Of a stretch of 20,054 nt of DNA, positions 3,022-19,058 are shown in pieces; positions within the stretch are counted from its first letter, which is position 1; every line of letters begins with the position of its first letter. The stretch is taken from positions 1-20,054 of the IMG/VR virus record IMGVR_UViG_2671180360_000015; one strand, given 5' to 3'. Origin of the DNA: a virus. Its lineage: Duplodnaviria > Heunggongvirae > Uroviricota > Caudoviricetes. A program made the translations under genes and the position numbers. The notes under the pieces were generated by a model. It worked only from the letters and a program-made list of their open reading frames with translations, did not search any database and was not told the DNA's origin.

Positions 3022-3434
3022 GGTTCCCGCCCCTCAAAGCGCTGACGGCAGGCCGTACGTACCAACCGGAAGAACAGCGACGCCATGAGATAAATCAGCG
3101 CGGTAAAAATCCACCCGGCAGCAATCAGCGAGACAAACGTCGCCACCATCACCACCAGAGCCGCCGCCCGTCTGCGCCACGGCACCGGCTGCAAAAACAG
3201 CGACGTGACAATCTGCACGGCCAGCGATTCCGGCGGCAGCTCCCGCCCGTAGCGTTCCAGTACATACTCTGTGGCATACACGCCGACACCACCGGCAACC
3301 ACACAGATAACCGTCGCCAGAATCGCCCAGGCGGCGACAAAACTGACGGCCACGCTCTGCGGGTAAATCAGGGACAGTGCCAGCATCAGCGCCAGCGACA
3401 CGTTCAGCATCAGTGAAAGGGATAATTTCTTCAT
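3009..3434 (-). CDS. lysA: LysA, membrane protein of the lysis cassette (lysis timing)
   Basis: 141 aa with several hydrophobic TM segments; position between K and lysB as in P2. Confidence 0.75.
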   Translation of the reverse strand: MKKLSLSLMLNVSLALMLALSLIYPQSVAVSFVAAWAILATVICVVAGGVGVYATEYVLERYGRELPPESLAVQIVTSLFLQPVPWRRRAAALVVMVATFVSLIAAGWIFTALIYLMASLFFRLVRTACRQRFEGREPCQS

Positions 3435-3448
3435 GGTGTTTACTCCGT

Positions 3449-3946
3449 TTAAGCCGGTACGCCGCCGGCGGTACGCCAGACGGTGACCAGTTTTTCCAGT
3501 GAATGCTCACGCTGACCGTAACCGGCACCCGGCAGGGACGCCCAGATATTGCGACAGCGTGAAATGGCGCGCTCAATGCGTCCCGCCCGGATGTCATCCA
3601 GTGCACCGCGTTCGCGGATCAACTGAATGGCAAGTCTGTCCTGTGACAACGGACTGAAATCCGGCAGGGCAAGCTGTTTGCGGTAATGCGGCCAGAACAG
3701 GTAAAGCTGCTGATAGCGACCGGAGGCCGTGGATTTTTCACCGCGACGGTTAAACACCTTCGCCGGTCGGCCATGTGCGAACGGGTGGTCACTGTAGTCG
3801 GTGAAAATTTCCGGCTTCCCGTCCAGTCCGGTGACTATCACGTCATAGCCCCGGTTTTTCGTCAGCGGATGGTTTGCCGTCCCTTCGGACACGGCCAGCA
3901 TGTCGAGAAAGGCGGCGATATTCTGATGCGTGTTAATAACCGGCAT
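3449..3946 (-). CDS. K: Endolysin gpK (lysozyme family)
   Basis: 165 aa as in P2 gpK; position after holin Y. Confidence 0.85.
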   Translation of the reverse strand: MPVINTHQNIAAFLDMLAVSEGTANHPLTKNRGYDVIVTGLDGKPEIFTDYSDHPFAHGRPAKVFNRRGEKSTASGRYQQLYLFWPHYRKQLALPDFSPLSQDRLAIQLIRERGALDDIRAGRIERAISRCRNIWASLPGAGYGQREHSLEKLVTVWRTAGGVPA

Positions 3947-4227
3947 TACGGTTTCCCCCTGCCCTTAAAGCGGCGCTGAATGGCAATCTCAATCACCTGA
4001 TAACCGGCGATACCCAGCATGGAGCCGATACCGCACACCGCAGGCAGTGACAGGTCAGGAAACTGCACCAGAACAACACCGGCAACCATCGAGACAAAAC
4101 CACCGAGCAACATGCGCCCGATAAACAGACGCGGGGTGATGGGTTCACCACCGGCAAGCACCTTGCCGACAACAATCAGCACCCCAATCATGAAAAGCGA
4201 CAGGACGCTTTTTTCTTCTGCTGTCAT
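3946..4227 (-). CDS. Y: Holin gpY
   Basis: 93 aa as in P2 gpY; hydrophobic TM segments; charged C-terminus RRFKGRGKP. Confidence 0.8.
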   Translation of the reverse strand: MTAEEKSVLSLFMIGVLIVVGKVLAGGEPITPRLFIGRMLLGGFVSMVAGVVLVQFPDLSLPAVCGIGSMLGIAGYQVIEIAIQRRFKGRGKP

Positions 4228-4230
4228 GCG

Positions 4231-4434
4231 TTACTCCCACAGATTGACAGTTTCAGCCACGGGCGCGGTCTGAACGTCGGGCAGTTCGACGGCGGTGCCG
4301 TGTGGCAGCACCGCACCCAGTTCAGCCAGTCCCGGATTTGCGGCGAGCACGGTCTCAACCACGCCCTCAGTGCGCCCGTAATACCGGACACAAATGGCGT
4401 CGAGCGTGTCGCCCTGTAGCGCAAAGGTCTTCAT
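4231..4434 (-). CDS. X: Tail protein gpX
   Basis: Internal start MKTFALQGDTLDAICVRYYG gives 67 aa as in P2 gpX; LysM-like motif; ATGA overlap with L stop. Confidence 0.75.
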   Translation of the reverse strand: MKTFALQGDTLDAICVRYYGRTEGVVETVLAANPGLAELGAVLPHGTAVELPDVQTAPVAETVNLWE

Positions 4435-7776: not shown

Positions 7777-7949
7777 TGTCAGGAGTCCTGAATAGTGATT
7801 AGAGGAGTCACATGTCGGCATCAGTTTCCCGACGATGCGCATCCTCCGCCATCAGTCCCGGATGGCTTATCACTGACACAACAGCACCTTAGCGAATCGC
7901 GGGGCGCGACTCAGTAGCCTTGCCGTGTATTCATCACGGCGAGGTATTC
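7777..7949. promoter_or_regulatory. Divergent late promoter region between O (leftward) and P (rightward)
   Basis: 173-bp intergenic region between divergent late operons, as for P2 PO/PP; contains inverted repeat GCCGTG-N7-CACGGC at 7922..7940; no exact TGT-N12-ACA activator dyad found by eye. Confidence 0.5.
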
Positions 7950-9722
7950 ATGACCATCACCACAGACACCACTCTTTTACACGACCCGCGTCGTCAGGCG
8001 GCGCTGCTGTACTGGCAGGGATTTTCCGTGCCGCAGATTGCCGCCATGTTGCAGATGAAACGCCCGACGGTGCAGAGCTGGAAACAGCGCGACGGCTGGG
8101 ACAGCGTTGCCCCCATCAGCCGTGTCGAAATGAGTCTGGAAGCGCGGCTGACCCAGCTCATCATCAAACCGCAGAAAACCGGCGGTGACTTCAAGGAAAT
8201 TGACCTGCTCGGACGCCAGATTGAACGACTGGCACGGGTCAACCGTTACAGTCAGACCGGCAACGAGGCAGACCTTAATCCGAACGTCGCTAACCGCAAC
8301 AAAGGCGGGCGTCGCAAACCGAAAAAGAATTTTTTCAGTGACGAGGCCATCGAAAAGCTGGAGCAGATTTTCTTTGAGCAGTCTTTCGAATATCAGTTGC
8401 ACTGGTATCGCGCAGGGCTTGAGCACCGCATCCGCGATATCCTGAAATCCCGCCAGATTGGCGCGACGTTTTATTTTTCCCGCGAGGCGCTGCTGCGCGC
8501 CCTGAAAACCGGTCATAACCAGATTTTTCTGTCGGCCAGTAAAACGCAGGCGTATGTGTTCCGCGAATACATCATCGCCTTTGCCCGGCTGGTTGACGTT
8601 GACCTGACCGGTGACCCGATTGTCCTGGGCAATAACGGCGCAAAACTGATTTTTCTCGGCACCAACTCCAACACCGCGCAGAGCCATAACGGCGACCTGT
8701 ACGTCGACGAGATTTTCTGGATCCCGAATTTTCAGGTACTGCGTAAGGTGGCATCAGGTATGGCCTCACAGAGTCACCTGCGCTCGACCTATTTCTCCAC
8801 CCCGTCCACACTGGCGCACGACGCCTACCCGTTCTGGTCGGGTGAACTGTTTAACCGGGGACGCGCCAGCGCCGCCGAACGCGTGGAAATCGACGTCAGT
8901 CATAACGCCCTTGCCGGTGGGCTTCTCTGTGCGGACGGCCAGTGGCGGCAGATTGTCACCATTGAGGACGCCCTGAAAGGCGGCTGCACGCTGTTCGACA
9001 TTGAGCAGCTCAAACGTGAAAACAGCGCCGACGATTTTAAAAACCTGTTCATGTGTGAATTTGTTGACGACAAGGCGTCGGTGTTCCCGTTCGAGGAGCT
9101 GCAACGCTGCATGGTCGACACGCTGGAAGAATGGGAAGACTATGCTCCGTTTGCCGCCAATCCGTTCGGCTCACGTCCGGTATGGATTGGTTACGACCCG
9201 TCACACCGTGGCGACAGCGCCGGATGCGTGGTGCTGGCACCGCCGGTGGTGGCCGGTGGCAAATTCAGAATACTTGAGCGTCACCAGTGGAAAGGCATGG
9301 ACTTTGCCACCCAGGCTGAATCCATCCGCAAACTCACCGAAAAATATAACGTCGAATACATCGGTATTGATGCCACCGGCCTCGGTGTCGGCGTGTTCCA
9401 GCTCGTGCGCTCGTTCTATCCCGCCGCGCGCGATATCCGCTACACGCCGGAAATGAAAACTGCAATGGTGCTCAAGGCAAAAGACGTTATCCGCCGTGGC
9501 TGTCTGGAATATGACGTCAGCGCCACCGACATCACCAGCTCGTTCATGGCTATCCGCAAGACCATGACCAGCAGCGGACGCAGCGCCACCTATGAGGCCA
9601 GCCGCAGCGAGGAAGCCAGCCACGCCGACCTCGCCTGGGCGACCATGCACGCCCTGTTAAATGAGCCACTCACCGCCGGTATCAGCACTCCGCTGACATC
9701 CACCATTCTGGAGTTTTACTGA
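7950..9722 (+). CDS. P: Terminase large subunit (ATPase) gpP
   Basis: Start MTITTDTT at 7950 preceded by GAGG gives 590 aa as in P2 gpP; 1-nt stop/start overlap with Q. Confidence 0.9.
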   Translation: MTITTDTTLLHDPRRQAALLYWQGFSVPQIAAMLQMKRPTVQSWKQRDGWDSVAPISRVEMSLEARLTQLIIKPQKTGGDFKEIDLLGRQIERLARVNRYSQTGNEADLNPNVANRNKGGRRKPKKNFFSDEAIEKLEQIFFEQSFEYQLHWYRAGLEHRIRDILKSRQIGATFYFSREALLRALKTGHNQIFLSASKTQAYVFREYIIAFARLVDVDLTGDPIVLGNNGAKLIFLGTNSNTAQSHNGDLYVDEIFWIPNFQVLRKVASGMASQSHLRSTYFSTPSTLAHDAYPFWSGELFNRGRASAAERVEIDVSHNALAGGLLCADGQWRQIVTIEDALKGGCTLFDIEQLKRENSADDFKNLFMCEFVDDKASVFPFEELQRCMVDTLEEWEDYAPFAANPFGSRPVWIGYDPSHRGDSAGCVVLAPPVVAGGKFRILERHQWKGMDFATQAESIRKLTEKYNVEYIGIDATGLGVGVFQLVRSFYPAARDIRYTPEMKTAMVLKAKDVIRRGCLEYDVSATDITSSFMAIRKTMTSSGRSATYEASRSEEASHADLAWATMHALLNEPLTAGISTPLTSTILEFY

Positions 9723-10756
9723 TGAGTAAGAAAAAAGGGAAAACACCGCAGCCAGCGGTGAAAACAATGACTGCCAGCGCCCCGAAAATGGAAGCATTCA
9801 CCTTTGGTGAGCCGGTGCCGGTACTCGACCGCCGTGACATTCTGGATTACGTCGAGTGCATCAGTAACGGCAGATGGTATGAGCCACCGGTCAGCTTTAC
9901 CGGTCTGGCAAAAAGCCTGCGTGCTGCCGTGCATCACAGCTCACCAATTTACGTCAAACGCAATATTCTGGCCTCGACATTTATCCCGCATCCGTGGCTT
10001 TCTCAGCAGGATTTCAGCCGCTTTGTGCTGGATTTTCTGGTGTTCGGTAATGCGTTTCTGGAAAAGCGTTACAGCACTACCGGTAAGGTCATCAGACTGG
10101 AAACCTCACCGGCAAAATATACCCGCCGTGGGGTGGAGGAGGATGTTTACTGGTGGGTGCCGTCCTTCAACGAGCCGACACCTTTCACGCCCGGCTCCGT
10201 GTTTCACCTGCTGGAGCCGGATATTAATCAGGAGCTGTACGGCCTGCCGGAATATCTCAGCGCCCTTAACTCTGCCTGGCTGAATGAGTCGGCCACGCTG
10301 TTCCGCCGCAAGTATTACGAAAACGGCGCACATGCCGGATACATCATGTACGTCACTGATGCCGTGCAGGATCGCAACGATATCGAAATGCTTCGCGAAA
10401 ACATGGTTAAGTCGAAAGGCCGCAATAACTTTAAAAATCTGTTTCTCTATGCCCCACAGGGGAAAGCCGACGGCATTAAAATTATCCCGCTCAGTGAAGT
10501 GGCAACGAAGGACGATTTTTTTAATATCAAAAAAGCCAGCGCCGCTGACCTGCTGGACGCGCACCGCATCCCCTTTCAGTTGATGGGGGGCAAGCCGGAG
10601 AACGTCGGGTCGCTGGGTGATATTGAGAAAGTGGCAAAGGTCTTTGTCCGCAATGAGCTTATCCCGTTACAGGACAGGATCCGCGAGATAAACGGCTGGC
10701 TCGGTCAGGAGGTCATCCGCTTTAAAAACTACTCACTGGACACTGACAACGGCTGA
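9722..10756 (+). CDS. Q: Portal protein gpQ
   Basis: 344 aa as in P2 gpQ; followed by terminator and cos. Confidence 0.9.
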   Translation: MSKKKGKTPQPAVKTMTASAPKMEAFTFGEPVPVLDRRDILDYVECISNGRWYEPPVSFTGLAKSLRAAVHHSSPIYVKRNILASTFIPHPWLSQQDFSRFVLDFLVFGNAFLEKRYSTTGKVIRLETSPAKYTRRGVEEDVYWWVPSFNEPTPFTPGSVFHLLEPDINQELYGLPEYLSALNSAWLNESATLFRRKYYENGAHAGYIMYVTDAVQDRNDIEMLRENMVKSKGRNNFKNLFLYAPQGKADGIKIIPLSEVATKDDFFNIKKASAADLLDAHRIPFQLMGGKPENVGSLGDIEKVAKVFVRNELIPLQDRIREINGWLGQEVIRFKNYSLDTDNG

Positions 10757-10925: not shown

Positions 10926-10944
10926 GTGCTTTCCCCGCCTCGCC
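10926..10944. other. cos: cos site: 19-nt cohesive-end sequence of P2 (window minus strand reads GGCGAGGCGGGGAAAGCAC)
   Basis: Exact reverse complement of the recalled P2 19-nt cohesive end; about 190 bp to the left (10757..10944) also matches the recalled P2 left-end sequence; position between Q and the old/tin-equivalent locus. Confidence 0.8.
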
Positions 10945-11104
10945 CGCCCGCTTCATGGGGCGGTTTTAATGCAGTTGCATTACCATACAGAAGTACTGCC
11001 ACGTCTGACAATTCATAGCTAGAATGTATAGCATATGTTGCATGCAAAATAATGCATATAAAGAATGCTTTTCACTCAATACTTCATCATACGATTTTGT
11101 TGGC

Positions 11105-11887
11105 TCATTTTAGAAGCCCTATTATAGCTGCAATCATACTTCCTACGCCGCCGACTGCTGCGAAAAAAGTAGCCCAAAACATTTTCTTCTGAGTACTCAA
11201 ATTCTCTCTGTACCGCACCTCATCTTTATTGAATGTAGATATTGTGTTCAGTGCCTTTCCTGTTGGCCTAAATCCACTACTTGTTTCAACAAGATCTCCA
11301 TTCTGAACAAGAGAATTCAGGCATAAACGAAGCTCTTTACGCATCCTGTTTTTATCGTCATGGTATACCCATAAACTACCAGCGACTTCGGTCATTATTG
11401 AAAACTCACTAAACACAGTTTGAGCATCCCATTCACGATACATTCTTATAATCGTTGAGAGAACAAACATCACATCAGTTATTTCTTTTTTTTGCTGTCG
11501 ATAAATATATTTTTCACGACTAAACTTTATATTTTCATAATTAGACTTTACTCTAAAGAACAACTCCCTTAAAAATGTTAAATCATTTAAAGAGTTAAAT
11601 CGCAACTCATGCGCACGGTAGTAGTAAACACCAAAAAAAGAATCAGGCGTAACCTCAGAAATATCCAAGCATGAACTTATATGAAATCTACGCTCCTCAT
11701 CATCCCATTTAAAAGCCTTTATCTTCCCATCAACCAAACAGTCAAAGAGGTATTCTGTATCATTTTTATCTTTAATATATACAGAGTACATATCATACTT
11801 AATCGCGTTTTCATATAACAAACTAATACGGCCATCATCTGGCGTTCTTTTCTTATCAAACTTCTTAAGTTGGTTTATAATTTTCAT
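11105..11887 (-). CDS. Hypothetical protein, 260 aa, soluble N-terminal domain with a single C-terminal TM anchor; candidate defence effector
   Basis: Long ORF in AT-rich DNA; C-terminal hydrophobic segment MFWATFFAAVGGVGSMIAAIIGLLK; no recognisable motif; weak SD. Confidence 0.65.
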   Translation of the reverse strand: MKIINQLKKFDKKRTPDDGRISLLYENAIKYDMYSVYIKDKNDTEYLFDCLVDGKIKAFKWDDEERRFHISSCLDISEVTPDSFFGVYYYRAHELRFNSLNDLTFLRELFFRVKSNYENIKFSREKYIYRQQKKEITDVMFVLSTIIRMYREWDAQTVFSEFSIMTEVAGSLWVYHDDKNRMRKELRLCLNSLVQNGDLVETSSGFRPTGKALNTISTFNKDEVRYRENLSTQKKMFWATFFAAVGGVGSMIAAIIGLLK

Positions 11888-11945
11888 AACATTCTCGCAG
11901 TGCTAATCTCATACGCAACAAATCTCGGTTCTGCCGCTCTAATAG

Positions 11946-11988
11946 TCAAAAAATGCCGACACCCAATTAAATATTCAGCGTCGGCATT
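11946..11988 (-). terminator. Terminator-like hairpin between the two cassette genes
   Basis: On the minus strand AATGCCGAC / GTCGGCATT 9-bp stem with 19-nt loop followed by a T-run, 9 nt after the upstream gene stop; loop is long for a canonical terminator. Confidence 0.35.
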
Positions 11989-11996
11989 GTAAGATA

Positions 11997-12770
11997 TCAA
12001 TTATCTATGATTGATATCACCTTACCAGTTTTTATATCAACACGCGCAGCAATCGTCTGTTTCACCACTCCGCCATAAGCATTAGTTCCGCGAAACGTGG
12101 TTTTCACAATGGCATGCGGGTCTTTATTCAAAACCAGATGATATACCGTTGATACATGTTTATAAGATGAATCATCGTTCATATTATCTTTAATTAGTTT
12201 TTCCAATGGACGATAAGAACCATCCCAACCACTAAAATTACTCTGAAATGTATCAAGATTGATTTTATTGTTTAGTGAATTCGGGTCATTTTCATAATCA
12301 TTAAAGCACCACCCAAGAACATCACCGAGTTTCAACTCATCATCTTTGGTAAATGTATATTCACTCATGCAGGCATAAAACGCATCTGACGCGGTGGCTG
12401 GAACTTCCTTAAAATCAATGTAACTATTCACAATATCGTGTCGTGTTTTCTTTGACTCGTTCCGATATTCCTTGAGTGTTTTTTCACCATATTCGAATGT
12501 TTTTTGGACTTTATGTTCTGCAACGGTTGATGTTTCAGTTTTATCAACTGGCTGGCTTTTTTCTGTTGGATAGAGTATTGAACCAATTATGCTCAATACA
12601 AAACCTCCTCCGAGATAAACCGCACTTGCACGTTTGCGGTTTGGCATTCGCACCAGTGATGGCTTGATTAACCCGATGAAGAAAGCAACGAAAAAAGCGA
12701 GTGATAGAAAAGCGATTATAGTATCCATAGCTATCCTTTTTGCATCATCCACATAAAAAATCGACCTCAT
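11997..12770 (-). CDS. Hypothetical membrane protein, 257 aa (243 aa from the start at 12728); two N-terminal TM helices and a ~180-aa C-terminal domain predicted to be periplasmic
   Basis: AT-rich ORF; TM1 TIIAFLSLAFFVAFFIGLI, basic loop RMPNRKRAS, TM2 AVYLGGGFVLSIIGSILY; the ATG at 12728 has the better SD (AAAGGAtagctATG). Confidence 0.65.
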   Translation of the reverse strand: MRSIFYVDDAKRIAMDTIIAFLSLAFFVAFFIGLIKPSLVRMPNRKRASAVYLGGGFVLSIIGSILYPTEKSQPVDKTETSTVAEHKVQKTFEYGEKTLKEYRNESKKTRHDIVNSYIDFKEVPATASDAFYACMSEYTFTKDDELKLGDVLGWCFNDYENDPNSLNNKINLDTFQSNFSGWDGSYRPLEKLIKDNMNDDSSYKHVSTVYHLVLNKDPHAIVKTTFRGTNAYGGVVKQTIAARVDIKTGKVISIIDN

Positions 12771-13157
12771 GTTAGCAACAGGATGCTTACTTTTGAATAT
12801 TTGTAAGTTGTTAGCTCTCCAACCTAACTCCTTTCAACCGTCAAAAACCGGCACCAACGCAGTAAAAATATGTCTGTCAACTAACGCCTCGCTACGCTCG
12901 TTGTTCAACCCCGCCAGCCCTGAAAACAAGTTTCACGACTGGCGGCGTTCTCTATCGTCTTCGTGGTGGTGGCGCAACTCTGGACTGACCGATATAGTTA
13001 AGCCGCCCGTAATTATCCCGAACTATTTCGGCACACCCGACCAGCTCATCGGGCGTCAGATTTTCGTTGACCATAATCCGCTGTAAACGCTGAACAATAG
13101 CCATCAGCTTGATATTTTTAGTTTTATGGTGCGGTATCTCGCCTGGTATTCTGTGCA

Positions 13158-13613
13158 TTATCCAAGCCACCCGTTTTGCTTTGCACGCTCCACCTGTTCA
13201 TCTGAATAGTTCCATATCCCATCCGCAGCAACCACTGCCCCGCCAGACAGCCCCGTCTCTGGTTCATACATAACAGCAAGGCCGAGCTGATGCATAATTT
13301 CATGATTAATTCTGAATACCAGACCACGTTCACTAAGTTCTTTCCAGTTCACAATCTTATATGCGCCCGTATTAAGCAGCTCAATACTTAGCAAGACATA
13401 ATCTTCCAGCCAGTCTGACAGGTCAGTAACATCTGTTATCCGGGCTTCAACCTTTCGCCCCGTAAACACACCCTGCACCCATTCATGCAAAATCAACGTG
13501 TCCCCGCGCTCATAATTACGGTCATTTTTCCGAAACTCTGCGCGTTTTTTTCCTTCCAGTACAAGGTCGAAATATTTTGCGTGCAGCTTTACCTCGTGAA
13601 TTTTTGCCATCAT
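13158..13613 (-). CDS. ASCH-like / DUF3850-type protein with C-terminal extension (151 aa)
   Basis: MAKIHEVKLHAKYFDLVLEGKKRAEFRKNDRNYERGDTLILHEW resembles the DUF3850/ASCH signature; start ATG overlaps the gpA stop (ATGA); occupies the P2 orf91 position. Confidence 0.7.
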   Translation of the reverse strand: MMAKIHEVKLHAKYFDLVLEGKKRAEFRKNDRNYERGDTLILHEWVQGVFTGRKVEARITDVTDLSDWLEDYVLLSIELLNTGAYKIVNWKELSERGLVFRINHEIMHQLGLAVMYEPETGLSGGAVVAADGIWNYSDEQVERAKQNGWLG

Positions 13614-15937
13614 GTCCACTCCATTACTGTTGAGAATCCCGGCCACTCATCAGCGACCGGATACGTGAATTTTTTCCCGTCATAATTTACGGTCGCGCCA
13701 CGCACCAGCGCCTCAAGCTCCCATCGTTGCGGCCTGATACCGTTCTGAGCGAGGTCAACGCGGATACGGGTAATTTGCAATCGTTCTGACCGGGTCAGTC
13801 TGGCCGATGGCGCTATTTCATGCGGTTTTAACGGGTTTCCGTTTCTTTGCTGACGGTTTGGTCTTCTCAGACCGTGTTTTAATGCGCTTCTGAGCGCCCT
13901 CACGACCTCCGGGTCATTCCATTCGATAACACCGTCATCAACCAGATTAAGCACTGCTGCGGCGTGCTCAGAAGGTGTGGGAGCCGGTAACGAAGCATCA
14001 CCACCGGTGAGCTTTCCACAGTTATTGACAGGACTCCGAGGCGCGGCGATGCCGCTTTTTAAAGTCAAAGGCTCAACGACCGGAACTTTCGGAACAATGC
14101 GCCAGTCCGTCGTTCTGGTGATATGAATATGACGCGCGCCGAGATGCGGCGCGTAAATGCCGACCACTCTCTCGACTTCTTCCTCGTACTCGTTAACGTC
14201 ATCCGACGGGCTACGGGCGACCCTGACAGTCTGACAATCGCGCGGGACATTTGCCCCACCCTGCGCGCTGATATACAACGCAAAATCACCACTGTCTGCG
14301 GCGGCGCGTGCAGCCTCGACGCGCTCGTCAAACTCATCAGCAATGCTGACGCCGCGCGGCAATTTGCGTAGTTCACGGTAAGCCCCCATTGTCGGCAGGC
14401 CAACCGTTTTAAATTGCGGGATGCGCCACGTTGACGCCCATGCGGTAACAGCCGCTGCAGTGTCTTTCAGCGGCCTGCCGGTGTCGTTATCGAGCTGACC
14501 ATCCAGTGCATAGCCGTCGATGTTTTTTGAAATGTATTTCGCGATATATCCCGCAGCACCGCCCCGGTTAAGGTGTTTTGCCTGAAAACGGTTTCGCGCG
14601 GCTCCTCTTTCGTCGCCATCCTCTTTGAGCGCATAGCGACGCATGATTTCGATAATCTGGTTACGCTGGCGTGAATTACAAAAAAGCATCATATGCCAGT
14701 GCGGCGTTCCGTCGTGGTGTGGCTCGACGACACGCAAACCGTAGACCTGTAAATCATTATCCTTGAATGCCGTGCGCATCAGGCTCCAGATACGGCAGAG
14801 ATAACGCTGCGCATCCTTTGGATTAAATGCCTCATCGTTCCAGCCGTGATTAAGCTGCACGGTTTTACTTTCGCCTTTTCCTACCTGACGTGTCGGGTGA
14901 TACTTTGACGGCGCGGTCAGCGTGATAAACATCCCCACATCACCCTCTGCAGCGGCGTAACGCTCAATACCGGCAATGGTGTTCATCAGCTCCATCCGGC
15001 GAATTTCAGGATTAGAAATACTGCCCATCACCTTACTGATAAGGTCGATGCGCTCGCCGGTTTCCCTGTTTTCAAGGTCACACGATTTAAGAAATTCCAG
15101 ATTTGCCTGGCGGCGCGCACGCACATCACGAATGGCGTGTTTACTGGCATAAGGAGAACGGTCTTTATTGACCTCCCCGACAGCTATCAGTAACGCTTCA
15201 TGCCAGCGCATACGCTGGCCTTTAAGCTGACTAATCCACCACTCATCGTTAAACAGGCGGGCAATGGCAGAATATGCCTGCCTCGTGGTCATCTGTCCTT
15301 TACGGTATTTTTTCCAGTAGAGCGGGGAAATATTGAAAGCACGTGCAGCGCCAGCAACATGACCATACAGATGTGCCTGCGCCTCATCCGTAAACAGCGA
15401 TTCTTTTTCACCATGCGCATCAACCCATGCATCGCAGAGTTCCTCATACATCATGAAAAGCTGCGATGAGATACGGGCGGCAAACTTTTTCAGCTCCTTG
15501 TCATTCATTCCAGGCAGGCGCGCATAGTGGTCACGCTCTGCCAGAAACAGCAACGACGCGTCGGTGTTCATTTCATGGCGCTGATTCACGCGCTCAATGC
15601 GCGGCCATAAACGACGCTGAAAAGTGGATGTGAGGAAATAAAACCCGTGTACCGGACTTTTATTGCGCCGGATGTAGTCATAGCGTGAAGTAAACAGCGA
15701 GCGCAAAAAGTAAGGCAGGCGGTTAATCGTGGATAAAACACCTTGCACCTGACGCATCTCGTCACGTGTAAGGGGTCTTTCGCGCCCGACAGCCTCGCGT
15801 GGCGCGTTCCATGCATAAGCACCAGTAAACGCCTTACCGGTGCCTGCGGCAAATGCTGACGGAGGGACAAAACGCCCGGAGGCTTTAACGGCCATATGAG
15901 CCAAAAGCCTCAGAACAACGCTTGCTGAGTTGCTCAA
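13610..15937 (-). CDS. A: Replication initiation endonuclease gpA (rolling-circle initiator)
   Basis: HUH motif in EPHHDGTPHWHMMLF; start at MAVKASG (15895) would give 761 aa, the recalled P2 gpA length; longest ORF is 775 aa. Confidence 0.9.
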   Translation of the reverse strand: MSNSASVVLRLLAHMAVKASGRFVPPSAFAAGTGKAFTGAYAWNAPREAVGRERPLTRDEMRQVQGVLSTINRLPYFLRSLFTSRYDYIRRNKSPVHGFYFLTSTFQRRLWPRIERVNQRHEMNTDASLLFLAERDHYARLPGMNDKELKKFAARISSQLFMMYEELCDAWVDAHGEKESLFTDEAQAHLYGHVAGAARAFNISPLYWKKYRKGQMTTRQAYSAIARLFNDEWWISQLKGQRMRWHEALLIAVGEVNKDRSPYASKHAIRDVRARRQANLEFLKSCDLENRETGERIDLISKVMGSISNPEIRRMELMNTIAGIERYAAAEGDVGMFITLTAPSKYHPTRQVGKGESKTVQLNHGWNDEAFNPKDAQRYLCRIWSLMRTAFKDNDLQVYGLRVVEPHHDGTPHWHMMLFCNSRQRNQIIEIMRRYALKEDGDERGAARNRFQAKHLNRGGAAGYIAKYISKNIDGYALDGQLDNDTGRPLKDTAAAVTAWASTWRIPQFKTVGLPTMGAYRELRKLPRGVSIADEFDERVEAARAAADSGDFALYISAQGGANVPRDCQTVRVARSPSDDVNEYEEEVERVVGIYAPHLGARHIHITRTTDWRIVPKVPVVEPLTLKSGIAAPRSPVNNCGKLTGGDASLPAPTPSEHAAAVLNLVDDGVIEWNDPEVVRALRSALKHGLRRPNRQQRNGNPLKPHEIAPSARLTRSERLQITRIRVDLAQNGIRPQRWELEALVRGATVNYDGKKFTYPVADEWPGFSTVMEWT

Positions 15938-16160
15938 CCTGCGCGTTTAAATCAGCAAAAGACTTTGCGCTTCCGGTCAGAATATCGTGATGCATCAGGC
16001 CGGAAACGAGCTGGCTTAATTTCGGGTAATAACCAACCACCGCCAGCCACTCCTGACCGGCGTTTTTACCGCTTTCCGCTCTCTTTTTCTCGTGGAGAAT
16101 AAACTGGAAGCTGTCACTGGTAACCACATAACGTTCGCCAATTTCAATACGAATGCTCAT
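15885..16160 (-). CDS. Hypothetical early protein (91 aa)
   Basis: ORF in early operon; ATGA overlap with the upstream TraR-like gene; lies in the P2 orf80-83 region. Confidence 0.6.
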   Translation of the reverse strand: MSIRIEIGERYVVTSDSFQFILHEKKRAESGKNAGQEWLAVVGYYPKLSQLVSGLMHHDILTGSAKSFADLNAQVEQLSKRCSEAFGSYGR

Positions 16161-16381
16161 GCCATTCTCCGGTAATGTTTGTTTTTTGCTTCAAAGACTG
16201 ACTGACAGGAAACACAACGCGTGGCTGACGGATAAGCCGCACGACGGGCAGCAGGTATTAGCGCATCACACTCTTCGCAAACCAACGCAGAAACACCGCA
16301 ATGTTTTACCCTTGCCGCGTTAATCTGGCGCTCCAGTAATTCAGCCTGTTGTTCCTGAATAAAATCTACGTTGTCCGGCAT
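16157..16381 (-). CDS. TraR/DksA-family C4 zinc-finger protein (74 aa)
   Basis: Cys pairs CEECDALIPAARR ... RCVSCQ typical of TraR/DksA C4 zinc fingers; strong SD AAGGAG. Confidence 0.8.
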   Translation of the reverse strand: MPDNVDFIQEQQAELLERQINAARVKHCGVSALVCEECDALIPAARRAAYPSATRCVSCQSVFEAKNKHYRRMA

Positions 16382-16383
16382 TA

Positions 16384-16671
16384 TCAGCTCCTTTTATCGT
16401 TCAGTTTCTTAAATTCATCAGCGCAATAGCTGGCGATTTCTGTCATTAATTTCGTCAGTTCATCCACGGATGAAATTTGCTTATGAAATACAGCGCGTTT
16501 AACAAGTAAATTGACCACATCAGACAGGAGATTTAATTTATCCGCATAAATGGCTATAGTTGATTCCACCATATCCCCAGTGTTTTTATCGCGTTTAATA
16601 TCAGCTAGCGACAAATCACCATTTTTCATGACTGAAATCTTCAGCCAGTTATTAAGCAATATATTTTTCAT
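16384..16671 (-). CDS. Hypothetical protein (95 aa), AT-rich
   Basis: ORF with ATGA overlap to the upstream gene; roughly 40% GC against about 55% backbone. Confidence 0.55.
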   Translation of the reverse strand: MKNILLNNWLKISVMKNGDLSLADIKRDKNTGDMVESTIAIYADKLNLLSDVVNLLVKRAVFHKQISSVDELTKLMTEIASYCADEFKKLNDKRS

Positions 16672-16913
16672 TCGCTATATGCCCTCTCCGCAGAATCAAT
16701 CATTTCCCGGCCATTATCGGTAATACAGAAACCTTCTCTTGATTTGGTCACAAGCCCCCATTTCCCCATTGCTATAAATGCTTTTTCCACACGACTAGGA
16801 CAGGAGCGGAAGACATCGCTTGAAGGATGTAGTGGAGTCTTGTCATCTAATTTTTTAAGTAATGAAAGTTGATAATCTGTTAAGCGTTTCCTGAACCATT
16901 TTGTATTTGTCAT
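16668..16913 (-). CDS. Hypothetical protein (81 aa from the ATG at 16913), AT-rich
   Basis: ORF in early operon; the track's longer form begins with TTG at 16919. Confidence 0.55.
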   Translation of the reverse strand: MTNTKWFRKRLTDYQLSLLKKLDDKTPLHPSSDVFRSCPSRVEKAFIAMGKWGLVTKSREGFCITDNGREMIDSAERAYSE

Positions 16914-17044
16914 CTCCAACTTCCCTGTTATTTATTGAGTCCTAGATTATGGAATTTGGCAGACTCCTGACTGAGCAACTCGACTATCTCCAGGCAAAAA
17001 GAAGCCCCGCACGATTAAGTGCGTTAAAAACTTTGGTTAATTAC

Positions 17045-18205: not shown

Positions 18206-18562
18206 TTAGGCCGCGTGGCCATGTCTGGATTTGCTGTAACTTATGCGATTCTTCCAGTCATGCCATTCTGTCGGAGCTTCATCGACTAGTTGAGCTGCAT
18301 ATTTGTCCCACTCACGACGATTAATCCATAACTCAGCATGACCGCCCGGCTTTAACGGGTCTGTCATATAGAATGCTGGCAGCTTTCCAGCTCGTGCCAT
18401 TTCAGCCACCGCACGAGGAGTCTTACCGATGTAAAGAGCAAAACCCTCTTTCGACAGTAAATCTGACGGATCCGCAGCCAACTTAATGGAATCACGCTTG
18501 TTTTTTTTAAGAGCAGAAACTTCTTGTCTTTTCTCGTCACAAATTTCAGATCCGACATTCAT
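18206..18562 (-). CDS. cox: Cox-like excisionase / early regulator (118 aa)
   Basis: First gene of the leftward early operon, divergent from C; segment ALYIGKTPRAVAEMARAGKLPAFYMTDP resembles the recalled P2 Cox HTH region; SD GAGGA. Confidence 0.65.
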   Translation of the reverse strand: MNVGSEICDEKRQEVSALKKNKRDSIKLAADPSDLLSKEGFALYIGKTPRAVAEMARAGKLPAFYMTDPLKPGGHAELWINRREWDKYAAQLVDEAPTEWHDWKNRISYSKSRHGHAA

Positions 18563-18665
18563 TTTGCTATCCTCACATTGATGTCAGCGATCTAGAGCGA
18601 TTTAGAGTCGTTAGATGCTGATAAATCATATCAACTATGCAAAAGAATACGAGGTTAGAGAATTT
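18563..18665. promoter_or_regulatory. Immunity switch region (Pe/Pc and operators) between cox-like and C
   Basis: 103-bp region between divergent regulators; three tandem 10-bp imperfect direct repeats at 18586..18615. Confidence 0.55.
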
Positions 18666-18965
18666 ATGTCAACTGACACTAGCGAACGTTTGAAGCTTAT
18701 CCGTGAGTCTGAACGTCTGAAAATGAAGGAGGTAGCTGAACTAGCTGGCATCAACTACACCACATATGCAGGTTATGAATCAGGTAAGGCTATGATGTCC
18801 CTAGAAAATGCTAAGAAGTTTTTTAAAGTAGAAAGGTTCAGAAAATACCGTGACTGGTTCATGTTTGATGAAACTGATCCAGCAGCTGGACAAATAGCCC
18901 CGGCTCTCGCACACATTGGGCAAGACTCAACAATCTTGCACCACTCAGACCAAAAGACTGGCTGA
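18666..18965 (+). CDS. C: P2 C-type immunity repressor
   Basis: Start MSTDTSERLK gives 99 aa as in P2 C; C-terminus GQIAPALAHIGQ...QKTG matches recalled P2 C; HTH-like N-terminal region. Confidence 0.8.
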   Translation: MSTDTSERLKLIRESERLKMKEVAELAGINYTTYAGYESGKAMMSLENAKKFFKVERFRKYRDWFMFDETDPAAGQIAPALAHIGQDSTILHHSDQKTG

Positions 18966-19058
18966 CGATTTATTCAGCATATGTGTGCAGTAAATGTACG
19001 AAAGAAAATTGCATTAATTTTCAAGTAGTAGAAGTAAACAGCGTCATCGGAGGGCTTT

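Follow-up and report, generated by a model that had tools for sequence, protein, structure and literature searches.

Between two minus-strand genes of a P2-like (Peduovirus) prophage, we found a hairpin that abuts a run of T residues and lies just past the stop codon of the first gene, orf97. We consider it probable, though well short of certain, that this site is a junction of two mobile accessory genes and that the hairpin is an incomplete Rho-independent terminator, derived from a hairpin that stands at the border of the variable cargo in P2/186 phages. If read as a terminator that separates two morons of a known hotspot, the hairpin is ordinary; the covarying border element is the part of this locus worth following.

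A low-G+C cargo slot next to cos

The window (the whole 20,054-nt stretch of DNA that was analyzed) carries terminase and portal genes on the plus strand (7920-10756) and, on the minus strand, an exact match to the P2 cohesive-end sequence, cos (10926-10944; cosR is annotated in the P2 record), which forms the right edge of the hotspot. Beyond the hotspot are the orf91/DUF3850 gene (13158-13646), replication gene A on the minus strand (13610-15937), an exact match to the P2 ori nick sequence (14025-14044), and the integrase gene, from 19059. The tract between orf91 and cos has a G+C content of 33-37%, versus about 56%, and holds two minus-strand genes, orf97 and a downstream gene that we call gene 2; both lie in the 33-37% range, and 109 nt separate them. 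Homology of the backbone to Wphi and P2-like phages stops at position 12879. Rousset et al. 2022 (PMC9122126) describe the gpA-cos-gpQ (cos-proximal) locus of P2-like phages as a hotspot of anti-phage cargo, and state that many P2 hotspots house more than one system. Islands at hotspots are commonly divided into small, terminator-bounded units (bioRxiv 10.1101/2024.10.15.618418).

A 68-aa ORF on the minus strand (12952-13158) lies between orf91 and the full copy of the border element described below, and its stop codon adjoins that element. This ORF was missing from the ORF list of the window and is annotated in RefSeq relatives. Judged from similar 3' flanks alone, it is probably the counterpart of gp37 of phages PSP3 and SW9, in which the gp37 gene has a copy of the border element on each side (two copies).

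The product of the upstream gene shares 76% identity with coliphage 186 Orf97. The ORF spans 11997-12770 on the minus strand (257 aa); however, orf97 homologues are 243 aa long in almost all cases and start at the position of Met15, as does phrog_3403, which matches residues 15-257. The orthologue in the window, counted from Met15, is therefore a gene of 243 aa at 11997-12728. Hydrophobic segments near the N terminus of its product are probably membrane-spanning. The GenBank record of 186 (U32222 / NC_001317) attaches to orf97 the note "expression from plasmid blocks 186 infection". The same record places orf97 at the end of the LexA-controlled SOS operon p95-tum-t95a-orf97-t95b, with t95a as a partial terminator 5' of orf97 and t95b as a terminator 3' of it. 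Because nothing but a terminator and cos follows orf97 in 186, we regard orf97 as a self-sufficient gene.

Gene 2 (11105-11887, minus strand; 260 aa, phrog_7611) is the last gene before cos. Its homologues, 45-63% identical, fall into 30 clusters, and a scan of genome contigs for gene 2 returned a single locus. An AlphaFold model of its product (pLDDT 86) has a beta-barrel and a winged helix, together with two long helices, of which the C-terminal one is hydrophobic and, to judge from the model, probably a membrane anchor. Foldseek detected a weak resemblance of this model to regulators of the CRP/FNR/PrfA type (E = 4e-3, TM about 0.25). PADLOC and Pfam searches gave no above-threshold match for the product of either gene, and the PHROG matches of both were solely to families with no assigned function (phrog_3403 and phrog_7611). 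No tested activity of orf97 or gene 2 was found in the searched passages and supplementary tables of PMC9122126; the table entries seen for orf97-family arrangements read "DUF3850/ASCH + hypothetical + hypothetical".

orf97 and gene 2 are independently mobile neighbors

The original prediction had likened orf97 and gene 2 to a sensor/effector or toxin/antitoxin-like pair. If they formed one functional two-gene system of this kind, the hairpin would be an intra-operon attenuator that sets the stoichiometry of the products. The common strand, the similarly low G+C content and the 109-nt gap are in keeping with such a system, and the pair recurs in prophages of Klebsiella, Enterobacter and Cronobacter, at 55-60% and about 72% protein identity. 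Some second gene also follows orf97 in every case examined among P2-like E. coli prophages. The identity of that second gene, however, argues against a fixed partnership: among 84 complete E. coli genomes that have orf97, gene 2 follows it in six and is missing from the other 78, and the partners present in the loci examined include unrelated genes of 311, 232, 218 or 217 aa. E. coli E70, APEC O78 and MS7163 are examples that carry the exact locus of the window. In one E. coli prophage (L120, 1293-2261), an IS5 element lies between orf97 and its partner gene.

Gene 2 is no more faithful to orf97. Homologues were found without orf97 in five of the nine lineages examined: directly after tum/DinI (L016/L017), after a retron-type reverse transcriptase in an E. 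coli prophage (L020, 1885-3801), directly after gpA (L021), after another long ORF (L022), and directly after t95a in a Pantoea 186-like prophage (L011, about 3400-4265), where gene 2 occupies the slot that orf97 has in 186. In 186 itself orf97 occurs alone, and it is this solitary gene that the record credits with blocking infection from a plasmid. Nor did either protein reach the threshold of any PADLOC or Pfam family. We accordingly give the two-gene system only a slim chance.

Comparison of orf97 alleles that have different partners (L117-L120, L001 and L002) located the point at which the loci diverge. DNA identity to the window is ~100% up to roughly positions 12100-12040, and past this point, within the final 40-100 nt of orf97, it fades until the sequences are unrelated. 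Because homology decays inside the end of orf97, the hairpin travels with the downstream gene, and orf97 is the left flank for a cargo swap by homologous recombination. A swap boundary inside orf97 is expected of such a flank and is a further argument against a two-gene system. We conclude that orf97 and gene 2 are neighbors in a swap slot, each independently mobile, and that they are not an obligate pair. Annotation and the discovery of defence genes should treat the two separately, as guilt-by-association across the hairpin would mislead.

A stable hairpin and a U-tract follow the orf97 stop codon

The inverted repeat of 9 bp that had been reported in this interval is present (AATGCCGAC, 11952-11960, and GTCGGCATT, 11980-11988), and so is the minus-strand T-run, a T6 at 11953-11948. 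The hairpin starts 8 nt past the orf97 stop codon (TGA, 11997-11999), and not 9 nt as claimed. The arms are separated by a 19-nt "loop", into which the stem pairs on when read on the minus strand, and the apical loop has 5 nt. The complete hairpin (11952-11988, on the minus, gene-sense strand) has a stem of 12 bp, then a 1x1 mismatch, a further 3 bp and the 5-nt loop, with G-U and U-G pairs in the stem. The T6 run (11948-11953, minus strand), a U-tract in RNA, adjoins the hairpin at its 3' foot. Its first two T residues lie inside the 9-bp repeat, so that four T extend beyond the repeat and six beyond the G+C-rich core; in the close relatives L006 and L010 the U-tract is a T7.

We calculated the folding energy, a check that the original prediction had proposed. 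The hairpin alone gave -20.8 kcal/mol on the sense strand versus -13.0 kcal/mol on the antisense strand, a difference of 7.8 kcal/mol; the sense-strand fold is more stable because two of its pairs are G-U wobbles. When the whole intergenic region was folded, the hairpin was kept in both the minimum-free-energy and the centroid folds. When all runs of T5 or longer that have a hairpin beside them were compared, on either strand of the whole window, this site ranked first, and the terminator 3' of the portal gene ranked behind it. In 200 dinucleotide shuffles of 11001-12900, a site at or below -15 kcal/mol arose anywhere in 1%, and -21 kcal/mol was reached in none (0/200). The hairpin is thus real and above chance expectation.

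These results also bear on two other possibilities, namely that the inverted repeat arose by chance or that a regulatory protein binds it as a double-stranded DNA operator. Short palindromes are frequent in A+T-rich intergenic DNA, and a second palindrome does adjoin the hairpin at 11993-12018. However, no shuffle reached the energy of the hairpin, and both the G-U pairs and the strand asymmetry suggest the fold of a single strand. In addition, 19 nt separate the arms, with further pairing in the "loop" between them, and every orf97 allele examined has a hairpin at the equivalent position. The probability that we attach to chance or to an operator is therefore very slight. The second palindrome, of 12 nt (GATATCAATTAT / ATGATTGATATC; 92% complementary), runs across the stop codon of orf97, just 5' of the hairpin, and none was seen in the few other orf97 alleles read.

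As a candidate terminator, the hairpin scored +18.5 (terminator-like) with a discriminant of the d'Aubenton-Carafa type, with a tail score of 4.43. A simple terminator scan, which allowed loops of 3-8 nt, did not include it among the listed sites; at 37 nt and with an internal mismatch, the hairpin is atypical for intrinsic terminators, though possible. The site combines a stable, G+C-containing stem-loop, an abutting U6 and a position close behind the orf97 stop on the same strand, which is what is looked for in an intrinsic terminator. The sequence thus supports a strong signal of the intrinsic-terminator kind on the gene strand, immediately past the orf97 stop, and this signal could therefore uncouple the expression of gene 2 from that of orf97, or lower it.

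We propose that the hairpin would form in the orf97 mRNA, 8 nt past the stop codon, and that hairpin and U6 together would stop most orf97 transcripts, most likely by Rho-independent termination. As with t95a of 186, termination is probably incomplete here. Gene 2 would then be expressed at a different, and probably lower, level than orf97, by read-through, from a weak promoter that overlaps the T-run, or from both. One annotation runs against the hairpin as the terminator: in 186, t95b lies downstream of the homologous hairpin.

A weak candidate promoter upstream of gene 2

The letters of the promoter that had been suggested for gene 2 are as described: on the minus strand, TTGACT (11949-11944) is followed after a 17-nt spacer by GAGATT (11926-11921), and the whole candidate sigma-70 site (11921-11949) overlaps the T-run. 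As a promoter for the downstream gene, the site is weak and does not stand out from chance. The candidate -35 element matches the consensus at 5/6 positions and the -10 element at 3/6, the key A (-11) and T (-7) being present; at 8 of 12 positions in total, the site fell under the scan threshold, and the region showed no excess of promoter-like sites (11 observed versus 7.9 expected in shuffles).

Comparison with relatives lends the site mild support, as it occupies the same position as a portion of a conserved box, TTGAAC-17-GTTAGT. This box portion was found 5' of the gene 2 homologues in L012, L013, L016, L018, L020 and L022, and was absent from L021 and L011. It is also conserved in 186, where no gene comes after it, and in P2-EC58, which has a convergent gene next. 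Since the box is kept without a co-oriented downstream gene, promoter function alone cannot explain its conservation. No consensus-grade promoter was found upstream of the gene 2 homologues, and promoter scans of this region in L021 and L016 gave nothing over chance. With a weak promoter here, and none of consensus grade at the homologues, read-through may dominate, which would make orf97 and gene 2 a de facto bicistronic unit.

The best sigma-70-like match of the 3-kb region is a different site, TTATCA-17-TATAAT (10/12; 11853-11881, plus strand), which is antisense, falls within the opening codons of gene 2 and is directed into the intergenic region. We set this site aside: its recurrence (in L016, but not in most other homologues) is confined to genes with identical N-terminal codons, and it is probably a by-product of A+T-rich codons. 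By-eye matches to the Ogr/B activator dyad (TGT-N12-ACA), to sigma-32, sigma-E and sigma-54 promoters, and to LexA box, dif/Xer and IHF sites were unconvincing.

A conserved border element in P2/186 phages

Upstream of orf97, exactly at the end of the P2-backbone homology, the window contains a second structured sequence (12880-12949, minus strand), which we identified as a full copy of an element conserved among P2/186 phages (94.7 bits with a covariance model). The element is ~70 nt long and comprises a 17-bp stem, with AAC...GTT at its base and CUGAAA...UUUCAG at its apex, followed at once by a conserved box of 28 nt, TTGAACAAC-GAGC-N3/4-GCGAGGCGTTAG. In the window copy, the hairpin occupies 12907-12949 and the box (TTGAACAACGAGCGTAGCGAGGCGTTAG) 12882-12908. 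We found the element in 70 phage records across the Peduoviridae, and copies lie in L023 (3338-3416), L026 (2105-2183 and 2510-2588) and L028-L116; reference phage P2 (L025) lacks it. In about 90 loci, one copy per phage is the norm. The element always has the orientation of gpA and directly follows a stop codon, and the gene before it is the last one before the variable slot: tum/DinI, the 68-aa ORF, orf97 or a reverse transcriptase. Its conservation stops sharply past TTAG. Duplicated copies bracket single genes in PSP3, SW9 and L119. The element stands precisely at the transition from the P2/186 backbone to the variable cargo.

The pairing of the border hairpin is itself conserved. In 22 diverse copies, a set that drew on a highly redundant viral-contig family with one extra spacer base, 93.5% of the pair cells were canonical versus 84.4% in column shuffles, a value that 0/500 shuffles reached; controls with slid partners gave 29-52%. 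Both sides had changed (compensatory changes) in 12 of the 17 pairs. The sense-strand fold was the more stable in most of the copies tested, on average by about 5 kcal/mol, because G-U pairs are frequent.

Rfam returned no real family for the element at gathering and E-value thresholds, only nonsense hits far under threshold (such as Giardia RNase MRP and frnS), and the element is unannotated in the GenBank/RefSeq records examined. In a term search of the hotspot paper (PMC9122126), "hairpin", "terminator" and "inverted repeat" did not occur. We did not find a description of the element in the literature, where Nilsson et al. 2004 and Odegrip et al. 2006 might mention it; the former deals with site-specific recombination in P2-like phages and, as PMC8987985 states, its subject is the Z/fun locus. 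The border box shares 8 nt with cos (GCGAGGCG) and 7 nt with the ori nick region; both identities are within chance expectation and were discounted.

The post-orf97 hairpin appears to be a diverged copy of the border hairpin

A hairpin follows the orf97 stop codon by about 2-24 nt in every allele examined (186, L012, L013, L018, L117-L120, 9W and P24A7b). When we built the covariance model without the post-orf97 copy, that copy was the best non-self match in the window, on the correct strand and in the correct place, at 11.3 bits and E about 0.1, over model positions 12-46, which is the hairpin part only. The same model matched the copy after orf97 in P24A7b with E = 0.012, and MAFFT placed the post-orf97 hairpin in register with those of 186, L012, L013 and L018. 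nhmmer with two seed copies did not detect it. The box that should follow the hairpin was unmatched by the covariance model and, aligned by hand, is only about 65% similar (TTGACTATTAGAGCGGCAGAACCGAGATTTG). On this evidence, the post-orf97 hairpin appears to be a diverged, A+T-richer copy of the border hairpin, with its 3' box largely decayed.

The homologous hairpins of relatives have no U-tract, and their discriminants, from -22 to -63, are those of non-terminators. A stem followed directly by a U-tract was seen only at the junction of orf97 and gene 2 and in its near-identical E. coli and IMG/VR contig copies (T6/T7). Because the hairpins of relatives are without a U-tract, the ancestral function was probably not canonical termination. 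In the lineage of the window, the conserved 3' box would have decayed and the U-tract would have arisen beside the stem.

This ancestry raises the question of whether the hairpin mainly keeps the role of the border element, the T-run being incidental. That role might be to stabilize the 3' end of an RNA or to provide a processing site; it might also be that of a single-stranded DNA signal on the strand displaced by gpA in rolling-circle replication, either as a priming site or as a recombination hotspot for cassette exchange. Much of what we observed for the border element would suit such a role: the strong covariation with its doubly changed pairs, the preference of most copies for the sense-strand fold, the single copy in gpA orientation behind a stop codon, the sharp end of conservation past TTAG, and the duplicates that bracket single genes. 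The ori nick site, moreover, is on the same strand as the border hairpins, 1.1 kb upstream of the full copy, and the strand displaced from the gpA nick is the one on which these hairpins fold best. Against it, the post-orf97 copy is without the conserved 3' box and matches the hairpin model weakly, and P2 is fully viable without any copy. The breakpoints are scattered over 40-100 nt inside orf97, in keeping with homologous rather than site-specific recombination, and no dedicated recombinase is evident; in the window, we saw no second recombinase beside the phage integrase (19059 onward). We give a retained border role a fairly small chance.

A stronger form of this idea, to which we assign a somewhat smaller chance, is that the hairpin is not a plain terminator but a decayed copy of a single-copy, family-wide structured element (the covarying 17-bp hairpin and the 28-nt box) on the left border of the cos-proximal hotspot that acts as a single-stranded nucleic-acid signal. 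If this were true, the element would be a site for priming the complementary strand on the gpA-displaced strand, or a preferred point of crossover or insertion in the defence-gene slot, and intergenic hairpins between hotspot genes would be footprints of past exchange. Rousset et al. (PMC9122126) leave the mechanism of exchange at the hotspot open, and the border element offers a concrete sequence handle on how the cargo is exchanged.

Comparison with known phage and cassette systems

The reading that we favor, an incomplete terminator at a junction of accessory genes, has a close parallel in the t95a/t95b arrangement of 186, in which the same gene, orf97, is bracketed by hairpin terminators. 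The annotation of t95a as partial is a precedent for graded expression within a unit. The two loci differ in several respects. In 186, the hairpin directly behind orf97 lacks a U-tract, and the annotated terminator is a separate small hairpin, t95b, about 100 nt past the stop codon. In the window, the post-orf97 hairpin itself has a U-tract, and gene 2, not cos, comes next. The window also has a P2-type backbone, without the LexA-controlled p95/tum context of 186.

Integron attC sites resemble the post-orf97 and border hairpins in being imperfect hairpins directly after an ORF, with AAC and GTT triplets at the base of the stem, in keeping their structure while the sequence varies, and in a fold that favors one strand. 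This is a likeness only. There is no IntI-type integrase, and the element is normally present once per phage and not once per cassette; the exchange breakpoints are scattered, and the long, sequence-conserved 3' box of the border element has no counterpart in attC.

The locus shares with the hotspot of Rousset et al. (PMC9122126) its position between gpA and gpQ, beside cos. In the arrangement that we propose, orf97 and gene 2 would be "morons" at a cos-proximal hotspot junction. A moron is a gene with its own promoter, a factor-independent terminator and an atypical G+C content, a concept that came from the genomics of HK97 and HK022. It is also cited in bioRxiv 10.1101/2024.10.15.618418. The likeness lies in low-G+C genes set between backbone genes, in a strong terminator-like hairpin after one of them, and in a hotspot made up of small transcription units. 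The difference is that only a weak promoter can be proposed for gene 2, and that the hairpin would come from a conserved backbone element and would not have been brought by the body of the gene. Other G+C dips in the window (about 39-40%, at 16000-17000 and 18500-19000), on the far side of gene A near the immunity/integrase region, contain small ORFs and may be additional accessory genes.
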